A stretch of 63,682 nt of DNA, filler included, from Octopus bimaculoides (lineage: Eukaryota), in assembly GCF_001194135.2 (NCBI RefSeq). It is 5 parts of 5 records of this genome, joined end to end, with 100 filler letters (N's around TTAATTAATTAA, not from the genome) between each part and the next. Parts side by side here need not be neighbours in the genome. Positions count along the whole stretch, not along the records: positions 22,784 to 50,818 come from NC_068981.1; positions 50,919 to 59,362 come from NW_026423612.1; positions 59,463 to 61,389 come from NC_068994.1; 2 more parts are not named here. One strand, written 5' to 3'. The translations under genes and the position numbers were made by a program. Shown here piece after piece: positions 34,899 through 61,489 of the stretch. The notes under the pieces were generated by a model, which was given only the letters and a program-made list of their open reading frames with translations, did not search any database and was not told the origin of the DNA. Within the stretch, counting starts at the first letter, position 1. Every line of letters begins with the position of its first letter.

Positions 34899-35128
34899 TC
34901 AATAATTTAATTACGAATTTGTACATTAAATTTACATTTATGTGACATGAGTATAATTTCATCAGAGAAAAAATAAAAAAAGATGTAGACCTATCAATTC
35001 ATTTCAGCTGAATGAATTTATAGGGCCACATAACATTCAAAGGTACATCTTTTTCTTTTCTCTGATGAAATTATACTCATGTCACATGAATGTAAATTTT
35101 AAGTACAGATTTGTAACTAAATTATTGA
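34899..35128. repeat. ~85-bp inverted repeat (long hairpin)
   Basis: Arm 34899-34987 (tcaataattt..tgtgacatgagtataatttcatcagagaaa..agatgta) is the near reverse complement of 35044-35128. Confidence 0.92.
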
Positions 35129-35154
35129 GCATCAATTGAAACGGCTGTAAGAAA
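35057..35154 (+). ncRNA. Type I hammerhead ribozyme motif with a long loop II
   Basis: tttct-CTGATGA-aatt..aatt-GAA-ac ggct gt-A-agaaa: stem I 5 bp, stem II 4 bp, near-palindromic stem III, GUA cleavage site after 35149. Confidence 0.7.
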
Positions 35155-35342
35155 TGAAGATGACCAATTTGTTAATAATAAACAATTATTAACTTCCTTA
35201 TCTCTATTTTCTTTTTTTCTTTTATATGTATTGAAGGAAAAGGAAAAGGAAAACAAAATTAAGGTAGAACGAATATCTAAGGTCGTTTAATTTTTAATTA
35301 GAGTAAGATGAATCAAGAATGGAGGAGTAGAAGTAATTAATG

Positions 35343-35419
35343 TTTTACGGCTGTTTCTGAGATATCCTAAGTGGTGGGTCAGCATCCCCATACACTGGGT
35401 ATTTCGTCATCAGAGATAA
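35343..35419 (-). ncRNA. Degenerate type I hammerhead motif
   Basis: CTGATGA-c-gaaataccc..ggatatctc-a-GAAAC agcc GTA; stem II 7/9 bp, stem I poorly paired. Confidence 0.45.
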
Positions 35420-35489
35420 GGTGTGTATGCAAGAAAGTTGCAGACAGAGAATTCGCAGTATATAGAAGAATAAAACAGTTCATCCTGTT

Positions 35490-35880
35490 TTAGAGGGTAT
35501 GTAATATAATGAAGAATGGGAATTACAGTATTTTTTAGTAAATAGTGGAGGCAAAATGTCTTGATTGTTTTGTGATACAGCAGTTGTAACGGTTAAGAAA
35601 TTCAATGCACAGCAACATTATGTTCTTCATAAAAACAATAAATATGCCAAATTAGAGGGTGAGTCTCGAAAGATAGCATCGCAGAAATTGAAAGATGGAA
35701 AACAAAAGCAAAGACAATTTTTCCAATCTGTGCTACATCAAGGGAATACTACGACAAAAACCAGCTATATAGTTGCATATTCGCTTGCAAAAAAAGGTAA
35801 GCCATTCAGCGAGGCAGAACTCATAAAGGAATGTATTTTAGAAGTGGTAGCATGTGTAACGGAAAATGTAACGGTTGGTT
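35490..35880 (+). mobile_element. hAT (SPIN/Buster, GTF2IRD2-like) transposase N-terminal fragment
   Basis: EWELQYFLVNSGGKMS*LFCDTAVVTVKKFNAQQHY..KTSYIVAYSLAKKGKPFSEAELIKECI; in-frame stop within the CxxC. Confidence 0.8.
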
Positions 35881-36419
35881 AAGGTGGAGTCAGTAGTCAC
35901 CAGTTGTAACGGTACGTATTATGTGTTACCATTTCTAAGGATAAGTATAACTGTTCGGAAGTTTGCAATTGTAACGGGTGTTGATGTTGCATATGTGCAA
36001 GATGAAAGAAGAACAGTGATCGGAGTGGCAAAGAAACATTTATTTATCGTTACTTATAATATAATGCCATGCCTCGACGGGCATGATGTGTATAATAATA
36101 TAAATGGAAAAGCATGCGAGGTTAAGAGGGTTAATTTCTTCTTGTATATTTGTGTACATGTTCCCATTGTAGTAGTAAGAAGACAGAGATAGGTTAATGT
36201 TGTAGAGAAAAGAAAGTGAACAAGTGAAAGTTAGAGAGTCGAGGGAAGTTTTGTCTCATAGTCGCTGATTGTAGCTTTCTTTCTCCCTCTGGCCGTTTGT
36301 CTCAAGTGGTTGTCTGCTTGTGGCCATCTCTAGTTGGTCTATGTTGACTAACTGATTTTGCCTTAACAAATTCTAGTATTTATAACCATGCAAAACCAGT
36401 CAGAAGGAGAGAAGGAGAG

Positions 36420-36815
36420 AAGGAGAGAGTGAAGTATGAGAGAATTAGGAGGGGGCTTAGAAGGGGGGAACCTGTGGAAAGTGACTGAGTGTTGCTTTTT
36501 ATGTGTGTGGTTTGTGGGCGGAGGTGTTTGAGTCGTGCAGGCCTGGTGAGCCATCAAAATTCTCTTAGAAATCGACTCATGATAAACAATGATGTGGCTA
36601 TTAAAATTCATAACAGAACGTGTATAAAATGTGGAAGGGTGTGCCTCTCAGTTGGAGGTCTAAAAAGACATGTTAAGAGAGTGTATATGGTGGCACCTGT
36701 TTCTCCTGCCAGCCAGCACAGTTGTCTAGTATGTAATAAAATATGTAAAAGCTTGGCCGGGCTGAAAAGTCATATAAGGGCATCACATGGCAACAATCAT
36801 GAATCATTTCAGTAA
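36420..36815 (+). mobile_element. Three tandem C2H2-like fingers, probably an RTE-clade LINE C-terminus
   Basis: CVVCGRRCLSRAGLVSH, CIKCGRVCLSVGGLKRH and CLVCNKICKSLAGLKSH; upstream YERIRRG..* in the same frame. Confidence 0.6.
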
Positions 36816-36869
36816 GTCTTCTTGGTAATGGCTTTTCTCGTGTAACGAGGATGCAGCTGCGATATGTAT

Positions 36870-37095
36870 ATATATATATATATAAAATCAAAAACGGAAA
36901 AAGAAACAAGAATAAAACAACGCGAGGACGTGGTACATGTAAAGTATTAATAAGACGCTCAAGGAAGGAAAGAAAGGGTGTTTTACGTTTCGAGGAAAGC
37001 TCTTCTTCAGAAACAGGAGACAGAGGAAAGTCCAAAAGAAAAGGAAGATGAAGGAAAAAATCGCCAACAATCCACATTTTGGGATCAAATATATT
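36870..37095 (-). mobile_element. Short non-coding hammerhead-bearing repeat (PLE pLTR-like) between (TA)n tracts
   Basis: (TA)n on both sides; contains the minimal hammerhead at 36979-37015. Confidence 0.65.
36979..37015 (-). ncRNA. Minimal type I hammerhead ribozyme (37 nt)
   Basis: tgttt-CTGAAGA-a-gag ctttc ctc-GAA-acgt-A-aaaca: perfect 5-bp stem I, 3-bp stem II, palindromic ACGT stem III, GUA site. Confidence 0.8.
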
Positions 37096-59068: not shown

Positions 59069-59079
59069 TATATATATAC

Positions 59080-59362
59080 AAGAATAAGGGCAGAGAATCG
59101 TCAATTAATAATAGAATTAATAATTAACAATTTTGCCAAGTAGTTCAGTATGAAAAAACTTTTATCGGTAAAACTATTTATCATCATAAATATACAGGGA
59201 TTAGCAATTGAGTTGCTTCTCCAACATACTGAAAATTTAGAAATAGCAGTCAAAGAACTACTGATTCCAAACTACAAATTTTTCTCTAAAGCGGATGGCG
59301 ATATTTATGGCACACATAGAACAAAAAACCGGAGGGAAAAGCGTAAACAAACCAAGCCTTTA
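59080..59362 (-). mobile_element. Third copy of the 56650-family repeat
   Basis: cataaatatacagggattagc..ctccaacatactgaaaatttagaaatagcagtc.. shared; the expected hammerhead position falls in the gap. Confidence 0.8.
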
Positions 59363-59714
59363 NNNNNNNNNNNNNNNNNNNNNNNNNNNNNNNNNNNNNN
59401 NNNNNNTTAATTAATTAANNNNNNNNNNNNNNNNNNNNNNNNNNNNNNNNNNNNNNNNNNNNACATATATCTACACACACACACACACACATAGTAAAAT
59501 GTTCGTTATAGGCATGTATAAGATAAAACCTTATATAAAACACTACAAACAATTATAAAAATGGAGAAGAGATGTTAAAAGTTCAAGTTAGAATTTCATT
59601 TCCACACACAGTCAGCTTCGCTTTGTTTTTCCTTCTAAATTTTTTTTTGGTAATACCTTTTTTCATGTTTTCCTTTAATTTTTTACACTGACAACAATGG
59701 TAATACATAACTAT

Positions 59715-59875
59715 TTTAATGAGTTCAAATTCCACTGAGGTCGACTTTGCCTTTCACGCTTTCGGGGTCGATTAGATAAGTACCAGTTACGTACTGGGGT
59801 TGATGTAATCGACTTAATCCCTTTGTCTGTCCTTGTTTGTCCCCTCTATGTTTAACCCCTGTGGGCAGTAAAAAA
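59715..59875 (+). mobile_element. Family-B SINE
   Basis: gagttcaaattccactgaggtcgactttgcc..gatgtaatcgacttaatcc. Confidence 0.88.
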
Positions 59876-60229
59876 ATAAATTATTATTATAATTAATGTT
59901 TTTTCTTACATGTTTGCATTGCCATTTGAAACGGTTGTATGTGGAAATTAAATTCTAATGAACTTTTTACTTGTTAGTTTCATATCTTAATTGCTTGCAT
60001 TAGCAGGCTGTCATTTTGATATGATGAATATTTATTAGAATATTTCTTTTTGGACTCTCCAAAAAGTTTGAATTGTTCTACTTGAAATATGCATATATAT
60101 ACATGTATACATATATATATATACATATATACACATATATTCAACTACATACATATACATATGTATATACCTACACATATACATATATACTTACACATAT
60201 ATACACACATATATATAACTTAGATGACT

Positions 60230-61200
60230 TAGATCGGTTTCAGCCATTATCAGCCCAGGACATGATTAACTCAGTAACACCACCTGGAAAAGTCTTTTAT
60301 TTAATTATTTTGGGACACCATGGACCACTCAAGCAGAGAGTTGTTATTGGTTGAGACGTAGGTGGTTTATCTGGTATTTCCTGGAAGAATTTGTCCAGGT
60401 ACCATTTGAAAGTTGTGGGGTCTTTTTCTACTTTAATTTCTTTTAGGATAACATTGAAAAGAGCAGGAGCATTTGCTTTGTAGAAATTGTGTCGCAATGT
60501 TCTTATGTGATGTGATCTTGAATTTTGTAGGGGATGTATTGCAGGGGGGGNNNNNNNNNNNNNNNNNNNNNNNNNNNNNNNNNNNNNNNNNNNNNNNNNN
60601 NNNNNNNNNNNNNNNNNNNNNNNNNNNNNNNNNNNNNNNNNNNNNNNNNNNNNNNNNNNNNNNNNNNNGGGGGGGGGGGCTAGTTTGGGGTGAATTATAA
60701 ACATAATAATACCGATATCATTTGGATAATATTAGTGGAATATTTTCAACATGATGCAAATAATGTATCGCTCATGGCTGCATTGCAGAGAATAGAGTTT
60801 CAGCTGTTTAAGTCGAGCTTAGTAATCAAGTCCCATCATGCCATTTATTTTTTTAGTGATTGATCTTTGTGGTGCTTCGATCCTCATTATACCTTGTTTT
60901 TTGTAGGGGAACCACAATGGGCAGTAGTATTCAAGGTGGGGCCTAGCAAATGTGGAGAAGAGAAGGATGATCATTTCATGATCCCTACATTGGAAAGTTC
61001 TGAGGATCCATGAGCACATTCTGATGCCAATATGAACTTTTTTGTTAATGTGCACACTCCAGCTAAGGTTGCTGTCGACATTTACACCTAAGTCTCTATT
61101 ATCTGCTGGTTCAAGTAGGTTTCCTGATGGTAGTGTATATGGTTGATGAGCTCAAATTTTTCTTTGTTCAACTGCATATTCTTTTTTAGTGCCCACTAGG
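60230..61200 (-). mobile_element. CR1-group LINE 3' fragments (split by a gap)
   Basis: WILRTFQCRDHEMIILLFSTFARPHLEYYCPLW; NAPALFNVILKEIK..FKWYLDKFFQEIPDKP. Confidence 0.88.
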
Positions 61201-61339
61201 TTACTCTGCATCACACACACACACACACACATATACCGGAGTAAGCACATAAATGTGCAAGAAGGTGGAGAAAAGAGTACTTAAATACCAGAGGCAGAGT
61301 AATATGCTTTATTTAAAAGCAGCAGAAATATAACAAAAG

Positions 61340-61379
61340 ACTGTTACTCGGAGTTTCACGTTCCCGTTTATCGGACAGT
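61340..61379 (-). ncRNA. Minimal type I hammerhead with a mutated core, in a short repeat (~61235-61389)
   Basis: actgt-CcGATaA-acg ggaa cgt-GAA-actc c gagt-A-acagt: all three stems paired, core substitutions U4C and G8A. Confidence 0.65.
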
Positions 61380-61489
61380 TGTATGTATANNNNNNNNNNN
61401 NNNNNNNNNNNNNNNNNNNNNNNNNNNNNNNNNTTAATTAATTAANNNNNNNNNNNNNNNNNNNNNNNNNNNNNNNNNNNNNNNNNNNN

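Follow-up and report, generated by a model that had tools for sequence, protein, structure and literature searches.

Minimal type I hammerhead ribozymes (min-HHRs) have been described in thousands of copies, which are mostly single, belong to several families per genome, and are ascribed to truncated Penelope-like elements (PLEs) (Cervera and de la Pena 2014, PMC4209133). The genomes covered there include those of the molluscs Lottia and Crassostrea, and some of the min-HHRs form opposite-strand pairs 100–700 bp apart. EN+ PLEs leave inverted 5′-truncated and partial tandem copies and have (TA)n as targets (PMC8557442). The paper on repeats of O. vulgaris reports 30 recently active Penelope families and contains no mention of ribozymes or hammerheads, and the giant squid paper gives 235 hammerhead-1 matches. 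A search of the octopus literature on hammerheads, ribozymes, and Penelope yielded no account of families such as those presented here, which may nevertheless have been annotated earlier.

In the window, a 63,682-nucleotide stretch of Octopus bimaculoides DNA, three type I min-HHR motifs are complete and several more are damaged. The short repeats in which they lie are unrelated to one another and probably represent pseudo-LTR remnants, the 3′ ends of different PLE families. Like the min-HHRs of PLE pseudo-LTRs, the window motifs, numbered H1 to H9, are of type I, with a helix I of 4–5 bp, an absent or short palindromic helix III, and, in H3 and H7, a bulged base after A9, and they share with the published set the presence of several unrelated families, mostly single copies, and opposite-strand pairs (PMC4209133). 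They differ from that set in the long helix II inserts or mismatched helix II base of H1, H2, H4, and H5 and in the altered cores of H6, H7, and H9, and the window families are absent from the portion of the published alignment that was compared. PLE association, a palindromic and very short stem III, and cleavage as dimers are also features of the hammerhead variants of Lunse, Weinberg and Breaker, as summarized in PMC6765202, which the window motifs would resemble. The pattern is mostly ordinary and has already been described in many animals. That this diversity is surprising is not supported; many dispersed families of min-HHRs within one animal genome are already published (PMC4209133, PMC7229834).

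The original prediction gave a minimum of seven stem-paired CUGANGA...GAAA motifs between positions 34899 and 61389; the motifs are real, but their number is lower. The interval contains fifteen CTGANGA heptamers, six of which are accompanied by a helix II of at least 2 bp, GAAA, and a helix III, a count that was reached in 0 of 200 shuffles (mean 0.67). Five of the six are credible motifs with an intact core and helices II and III, located at 35062(+) (H1), 35413(−) (H2), 37010(−) (H3), 56892(−) (H4), and 58469(+) (H5). The sixth, 43984(−), fails the full descriptor that includes helix I and was treated as chance, and 46749(−) was rejected as a hammerhead since it lacks GAAA. Helix I is also closed in only H1, H3, and H5, which contain the complete type I core CUGANGA...GAAA...UH, whereas H2 and H4 combine an intact core with a decayed helix I, and the cores of H6, H7, H8, and H9 are not intact. 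Local dinucleotide shuffling of the window, repeated 40 times, never produced a complete motif, against three in the actual sequence. Allowing one core mismatch yields four motifs (shuffle mean 0.45), and allowing two yields nine (mean 5.0, maximum 8), so that two-mismatch motifs are singly inseparable from chance. The self-complementarity of helix III goes beyond the demands of the descriptor, with self-pairing at 8/8 positions in H1 (including G-U), 6/8 in H2, 4/4 in H3, 6/7 in H4, 8/10 in H5, 8/9 in H6, 4/4 in H7, and 8/8 in H9a. The G10.1–C11.1 pair with an unpaired base after A9 is present in H3, and H7 has the bulge together with a G-U pair; the corresponding positions form A-U in H1, G-U in H4, and mismatches in H2 and H5.

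A covariance model built from 17 motifs of PLE loci ranks H3 at the top of the window (22.6 bits, E ~1e-4); the score of H7 (8.9 bits) and those of H1, H2, H4, and H5 are not significant. Monomer folding of ten hammerhead candidates does not favour the hammerhead fold, and none has a z-score below −1.5; this is expected for motifs of the dimer type, and folding was not used as evidence. No hammerhead is present among the Rfam matches listed for the whole window (150 of 198) or in two focused scans. This blank result is uninformative, because Rfam is likewise blind to the motifs in 7/7 control PLE loci. Pattern scans of metagenome, genome, and viral contigs found no family members.

H1 (35057–35154, plus strand, core CUGAUGA at 35062) is a complete type I min-HHR, in which the 4-bp base of helix II carries a 61-nt insert and is followed by GAAA and a 5-bp helix I, with a predicted cut after 35149. 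Within the H1–H3 stretch, 34760–37130, to which the placement of reads was confined, the H1 family reaches a read depth of 11,800–30,000, compared to about 55 for a single-copy piece. An inverted, head-to-head copy of the H1 family, H1′ (34726–34990, minus strand, core at 34965), retains only the 5′ half, with the GAAA half deleted, and terminates at (TA)n near 34725. The missing half is present in other copies (loose end at 34894, run X5), and other copies of the H1′ family also terminate at (TA)n (joint of 37117 to 34763, X9). A MIR2646 match at 34896–35131 was rejected, as it is far under the gathering score and reflects the H1′/H1 inverted repeat. H2 (35341–35418, minus strand) has an intact core at 35413. 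C faces A where helix II begins at its base, and helices I and II are decayed in the window copy. The majority letters of the reads restore one pair each at 35349 (8555 of 8712 depth), 35404 (8864 of 10391), and 35417 (5841 of 7101), and the first of these turns helix III into a perfect 8-nt palindrome (8/8 instead of 6/8). These letters come from 40 of 563 read-difference rows, and those 40 included none for H3.

H3 (36979–37015, minus strand) is a textbook PLE min-HHR with CUGAAGA, a bulged A, and GAAA-C-G-U-A, and it matches the published consensus CUGANGAH-G...C-GAAAN-palindrome-NUH. It has a 5-bp helix I but no loop 3, and cleavage after the predicted position 36984 would need a dimer. 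H3 lies in a non-coding element of about 210 bp (36886–37097, minus strand), which is bordered by (TA)n on both sides and belongs to a high-copy family with a summed contig depth of ~217,000 in X9 and 55,000–59,000 in X5. In X5, many contigs of this family pass into (TA)n ~18 nt past 37077 (agreement 0.59), a tendency that points to a constant 5′ boundary and not to truncation at random sites. The X9 consensus at this loose end does not have a (TA)n terminus.

H4 (56838–56897, minus strand, intact core at 56892) contains a 4-bp helix II with an extension and an imperfect helix I. Its tail of ~185 nt reaches (TA)n at 56657, and more tail copies are located near 57225–57362 and 59185–59342. H5 (58463–58525, plus strand, core at 58469) is a complete hammerhead with a U-U opposition preceding helix II, a near-palindromic helix III, a 6-bp helix I, and a predicted cut after 58519. 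The element around H5 (57741–58782, plus strand) ends in (TA)n and contains one motif and no detected ORF. It has a 141-bp direct repeat at both ends (57741–57880 and 58643–58782, 95.7% identical) and is interrupted by a SINE-like insertion of 393 bp, flanked by a target duplication of 11 bp; it corresponds to a 509-bp unit present 1.28 times. An endonuclease tail suspected upstream of H5 was rejected as not significant (237/1500 random stretches scored as high, in a test without power). None of the sequencing runs listed as carrying the H5 stretch is recorded as RNA.

The remaining motifs are altered or doubtful. H7 (54861–54896, plus strand) has all helices and an H3-like architecture around the core CUGUGGA at 54865 (A6 to U). 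In H6 (61340–61379, minus strand), helices I–III are intact around the core CCGAUAA at 61374 (U4C, G8A); by count alone H6 is inseparable from chance, yet its helix III is self-complementary. H8 (60226–60253, minus strand) combines CUGAUAA with GAAA and adjoins (TA)n, but it was rejected as a hammerhead because only 5 nt separate the boxes and helix II is absent; H8 and 43984 are probably chance or wreckage. Outside the interval 34899–61389, H9a and H9b (10797–11238, minus strand) lie in two 180-bp direct repeats that are 82% identical and 262 bp apart. Their cores are decayed (CCGACAA and CCAACGA), but both have GAAA, and helix III is in each case a perfect palindrome of 8 nt.

The repeats that carry the motifs are unrelated in sequence, as had been predicted: when the 100-nt 3′ flanks were compared in 28 pairs, no pair scored so high that 2 or fewer of 200 shuffles equalled it, and a likeness between the flanks of H3 and H7 is not significant (38/200 shuffles as high). 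Their status as repeats holds for the families at 35062, 35413, and 37010, which are multi-copy by read depth, and for 56892 and 58469, which have tail copies in the window. About half of the motifs abut (TA)n, instead of most. A (TA)4+ tract is located within 270 nt on the 3′ side of 34965, 37010, 56892, and 58469, at a threshold that was picked post hoc and with a background of 17% of random positions. A (CA)n tract lies 114 nt from 61374 on the 3′ side, and 35062, 35413, and 54865 have no such tract within 600 nt. The window contains PLE-like insertion structures, namely the H1′/H1 inverted pair, the H5 partial tandem, and four elements whose 3′ ends adjoin (TA)n.

Both PLE fragments that had been recognized in the window are confirmed by protein evidence. 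The broken EN+ PLE ORF at 16691–18125 (minus strand) encodes a reverse transcriptase (RT), a Cys-containing linker, and GIY-YIG, is interrupted by a stop near 17889 and a frameshift near 17400, and meets an assembly gap at its 3′ end. It resembles EN+ PLEs with a Cys motif in the linker (Neptune/Nematis type; PMC8557442), a likeness that derives from domains and not from a tree; unlike in those elements, motif and ORF are not physically linked in the window. The N-terminal fragment of another PLE ORF (50537–50803, plus strand) follows (TA)n and is cut by a gap. Its comparison with a PLE alignment using hhalign gave a probability of 89 and an E value of 2e-6, and it has 174 phmmer relatives, one of which (P0062) contains RVT_1 and GIY-YIG. 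A word-based protein search with this fragment returned nothing, whereas the full HMMER search did match. In related PLE loci, the same descriptor identifies intact motifs on the ORF strand in 23/80 cases and on the antisense strand in 1/80. A downstream motif is present in 13 of the 38 PLE loci with at least 300 nt past the ORF, and 14 downstream matches are located 131–789 nt beyond the ORF match. No PLE ORF remnant adjoining a motif is detectable within the window; a finer test for such remnants was without power, as the window's own PLE end did no better than 99/1500 random stretches.

The assignment of the motifs to PLE 3′ ends is favoured because complete motifs are missing from all 40 shuffles, because motifs in related PLE loci are biased to the ORF strand, because H3 tops the PLE-derived model and matches the consensus, because the family majority of H2 restores three pairs, and because the H1′/H1 pair matches inverted 5′-truncated PLE copies, with (TA)n being a named PLE target. 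The predicted PLE-type minimal hammerheads of type I, with short palindromic helices III and several unrelated families, are supported, and the genome contains EN+ PLE ORFs. The assignment is weakened because no motif adjoins a PLE ORF remnant, because the H3 contigs in X5 hint at a fixed 5′ boundary, and because H1, H2, H4, and H5 depart from G10.1–C11.1 or have long helix II inserts and lack significant model scores. An origin of the motifs by chance in repetitive, AT-rich DNA is very improbable overall. The two-mismatch count near the shuffle range, the unremarkable fold z-scores, and the blank Rfam result would fit chance, but the intact motifs exceed all shuffles, the descriptor does not require the palindromy of helix III, and the Rfam blank carries no information. 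Chance is refuted for H1, H3, and H5 and stands for H6, H7, and H8.

The families of H3 and H5 may instead be dedicated non-autonomous elements that lack an ORF, derive from PLE pseudo-LTRs, and have fixed ends. PLE RT would mobilize them in trans, possibly by copying a self-cleaved circular RNA over more than a single turn; we regard this as a minority possibility. It would account for the 141-bp terminal redundancy of the ORF-less H5 element and for the short H3 element with (TA)n on both sides, very high depth, and loose ends in X5 that suggest a common 5′ end, and a 2026 preprint derives retrozymes from pseudo-LTRs (bioRxiv 10.64898/2026.07.22.740005). However, a partial tandem of two truncated copies, typical of autonomous PLEs, looks identical, the agreement of loose ends is low (0.49–0.59), and X9 provides no matching (TA)n end. 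The RNA data, cDNA libraries of which ~6% of each run was read, offered a weak test: none of the 15 joints listed (132 more are unlisted, and 17 were dropped at repeats in X24) is RNA-supported, and RNA ends do not pile up at predicted cut sites in two runs. Classical non-LTR retrozymes, which are tandem repeats of 150–450 bp with canonical fast hammerheads and abundant small circular RNAs, as in a coral example, are an improbable source of the motifs. Metazoan retrozymes are, like the window repeats, non-coding, low in G+C, and equipped with a type I hammerhead, and they are proposed to derive from and use PLEs (PMC7229834; bioRxiv 10.64898/2026.07.22.740005); the window families are also multi-copy, and H9a and H9b are two same-strand motifs. 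In contrast to retrozymes, the window motifs are solitary and minimal (helix I 4–6 bp), no motif is covered by any of the 107 arrays that Tandem Repeats Finder lists at periods of 500 or less, H9 copies have only 180 of 262 bp in common and decayed cores, and the weak RNA test showed neither circles nor cleavage ends. The original reading of the motifs as retrozymes is not supported. RNA reads occur in both orientations, and 85–86% continue into unlike sequence, as expected for copies inside host transcripts; a presumed host exon has no Atlas match.

Based on the biology of PLEs, a mechanism by which PLE 3′ ends would produce the observed pattern can be proposed. Nicks made in (TA)n microsatellites by the GIY-YIG endonuclease would be the sites of insertion, and reverse transcription of the element RNA would start at its 3′ end and mostly halt after 150–500 nt. 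Such events would leave only the hammerhead-bearing tail, at times accompanied by a second copy in inverted or partial tandem arrangement. In a parent tandem transcript, two motifs would pair through their palindromic helices III and cut slowly, freeing a unit RNA, whereas solitary copies would have almost no activity and would be expected to decay neutrally. We speculate further, with considerable doubt, that the genome contains high-copy, fixed-end, ORF-less PLE satellites copied from self-cleaved circular RNAs. H5 would then be the footprint of more than one turn of RT, the 210-bp H3 family would have thousands of copies, some families would use variant cores (U4C in H6 and H9, A6U in H7) or a helix II base mismatch, and few animals would match the genome in its total load of hammerheads.

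The locus extends a known class by families that are unannotated, and it exposes the blindness of Rfam to such motifs. The window, which was picked for this trait, has a density of three complete motifs per 59,359 called bases; if this density held genome-wide, the count would be above the roughly 9,000 published for Xenopus or the more than 6,000 for Acropora. If H5 or H3 are fixed-end ORF-less units, they would provide a handy test of the open model in which cleavage and circularisation of PLE RNA precede its copying over more than one unit length.

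The window contains real hammerhead motifs. A type I descriptor (in order, helix I, CUGANGA, helix II, GAAA, helix III and UH) identified three complete intact motifs in it, H1 at 35062(+), H3 at 37010(-) and H5 at 58469(+), and none in 40 local dinucleotide shuffles. Tolerating one core mismatch added H7 (54865+), giving four motifs where shuffles averaged 0.45. Allowing a second mismatch raised the count to nine, versus 5.0 in shuffles, and therefore H6 (61374-) alone is not significant. When the helix I requirement was dropped, positions 34899-61389 yielded six matches versus a mean of 0.67, a number reached in 0 of 200 shuffles; these were H1, H2 (35413-), H3, H4 (56892-), H5 and 43984, the last of which is likely a chance match. 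Of two further candidates, 34965 is a half copy and 60253 has no helix II. The at least seven CUGANGA...GAAA motifs with paired stems of the original prediction are thus real as a class, but seven are reached only if damaged cores are counted. The repeats are unrelated in sequence, as had been claimed (3' flanks in 28 of 28 pairs), whereas about half of the motif-bearing elements, not most, terminate at (TA)n. Nearly all motifs have a self-complementary helix III, a property outside the demands of the descriptor. The proposed Rfam scans matched neither the window's motifs nor those of the control PLE loci. A hairpin at 59120-59190 (-), in which a GAAC box comes after CCGATAA, is more stable than its shuffled versions (z -2.1) and was left out of the count.

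The motifs are most likely the tails of Penelope-like element (PLE) insertions. The PLE fragments predicted at 16680-18125 and 50537-50806 were recovered as a broken ORF with RT and GIY-YIG (16691-18125, -), which is 49-62% identical in pieces to three related PLE proteins, and as the N-terminus of a PLE (50537-50803, +). Both lie clear of the motifs, and no ORF remnant was detected beside any motif with a PLE profile; a finer test was without power. The same descriptor was applied to a control set of 80 related PLE loci taken from metagenome contigs, where intact motifs occurred on the ORF strand in 23/80 and antisense in 1/80. The motif was located 3' of the ORF in 13 of the 38 loci having enough flank, and its helices covary (87.6% of cells paired; two-sided changes in 9 of 11 pairs). 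A model built from 17 of these motifs placed H3 at the top of the window with 22.6 bits; the other window motifs, several with longer inserts, were not significant. Three PLE loci of other animals (L024, L058 and L012) have two copies of the same minimal hammerhead on the ORF strand, one on each side of the ORF in L024 and L058, which is a direct view of paired pseudo-LTRs.

The surrounding sequence is gapped, AT-rich, and rich in microsatellites, SINEs and LINE pieces. The SINEs suggest an octopus source, and LINE-like fragments were judged by eye at 28850-31400, 51340-52400, 53250-53570, 60270-60530 and 62120-63682. Broken transposase-like frames at 18130-18800 (-) and ~35490-35880 (+), presumably Tc1/mariner-like and hAT-like judging by their motifs, adjoin the PLE fragment and H2. 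A likely host exon at 55633-55775 (+), bounded by AG and GT, reads SQIKAQLKRKAYEDAG..., possibly with another near 55461-55478; an Atlas search with the former gave zero matches.

The segment 34760-37130 was aligned with two contig sets, one of the same species label and one of a second organism, and with two RNA read sets. In the former contigs, depth was ~55 for a difference-free piece (the baseline), up to ~217,000 in H3 bins, 11,800-30,000 in the H1 arms and 6,100-7,600 in H2. Depth is not a copy number, but these values point to thousands of copies for the H3 family and hundreds for the H1 and H2 families. Among the 40 of 563 difference rows listed, none falls in H3. At three listed positions of H2 the majority letter restores a base pair, so the H2 family is structured and the copy in the window has decayed. 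Other H1-family copies have the entire motif and terminate at (TA)n, as loose ends and joints show; the half copy H1' (34965, -) and H1 therefore form a head-to-head inverted pair.

The original prediction also read the families as retrozyme-like. In the metazoan retrozymes described so far, units of 150-450 bp are repeated in tandem, and the coral example has canonical ribozymes and abundant circles; the class is kept separate from the minimal PLE variants (PMC7229834). No tandem array in the window contains a motif of 34899-61389. Arrays of 62-bp (6.2 copies, 50919-51302) and 66-bp units (3.3 copies, 43691-43905) resemble each other and lack a hammerhead motif. Two loci approach the retrozyme form most nearly, H9a/b and the H5 element. 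H9a/b (10797-11238, -), outside that range, resembles a tandem dimer more than anything else in the window. It consists of 180-bp direct repeats spaced 262 bp apart, each bearing a decayed hammerhead-like motif whose helix III is perfectly palindromic. Each H9 core could be one CpG transition from CCGACGA, a U4C variant; U4C is known as a weak natural form (PMC3088659). The H5 element has a 141-bp repeat at either end and contains a 393-bp SINE-like insertion (57975-58378) with an 11-bp target duplication, which must be younger than the element. Without it, a 509-bp unit is present 1.28 times, has no ORF and terminates in (TA)n. This arrangement fits more-than-one-turn copying of a small circle as well as two truncated PLE copies joined in a partial tandem. 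The H4 tail occurs at 56660-56832, 57225-57362 and 59185-59342; the first two copies are identical for 123 bp and lie on opposite sides of a gap, possibly because the assembly duplicated this stretch.

The RNA reads aligned to 34760-37130 (1083 and 728, from ~6% of each run) included only 2 and 3, respectively, of at least 99% identity. The two orientations were about equal, and 85-86% of reads continued into unlike sequence, which fits other family copies embedded in host transcripts. The sole pile-up of read ends (5 molecules at 35087) lies at no predicted cut. The search for circles that had been called for found RNA support for 0 of the 15 joints listed (132 lay beyond these and 17 were dropped at repeats), which, cDNA libraries being a weak test for small circles, is lack of support rather than disproof.

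The general pattern is already known from other animals. Thousands of dispersed minimal hammerheads per genome, in several families, are described from animals that include molluscs; most of them are single, and truncated PLEs are given as their source (PMC4209133). Acropora has >6,000 in 16 families (PMC7229834), and giant squid gives 235 Rfam matches. No description of such families was found in the octopus literature, a search outside which lay the dimer-variant study, one supplement and repeat databases. Under the PLE-tail reading, (TA)n would be nicked, and reverse transcription would begin at the RNA 3' end and truncate early, now and then giving inverted or tandem copies. A tandem transcript of the parent element would carry two motifs, which would associate by their palindromic helix III and cleave slowly. 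Cleavage was absent for single S. mansoni motifs and low for dimers (PMC4209133), and 8 of 9 Xenopus dimers yielded no product (bioRxiv 10.64898/2026.07.22.740005). The solitary copies in the window are therefore probably silent.
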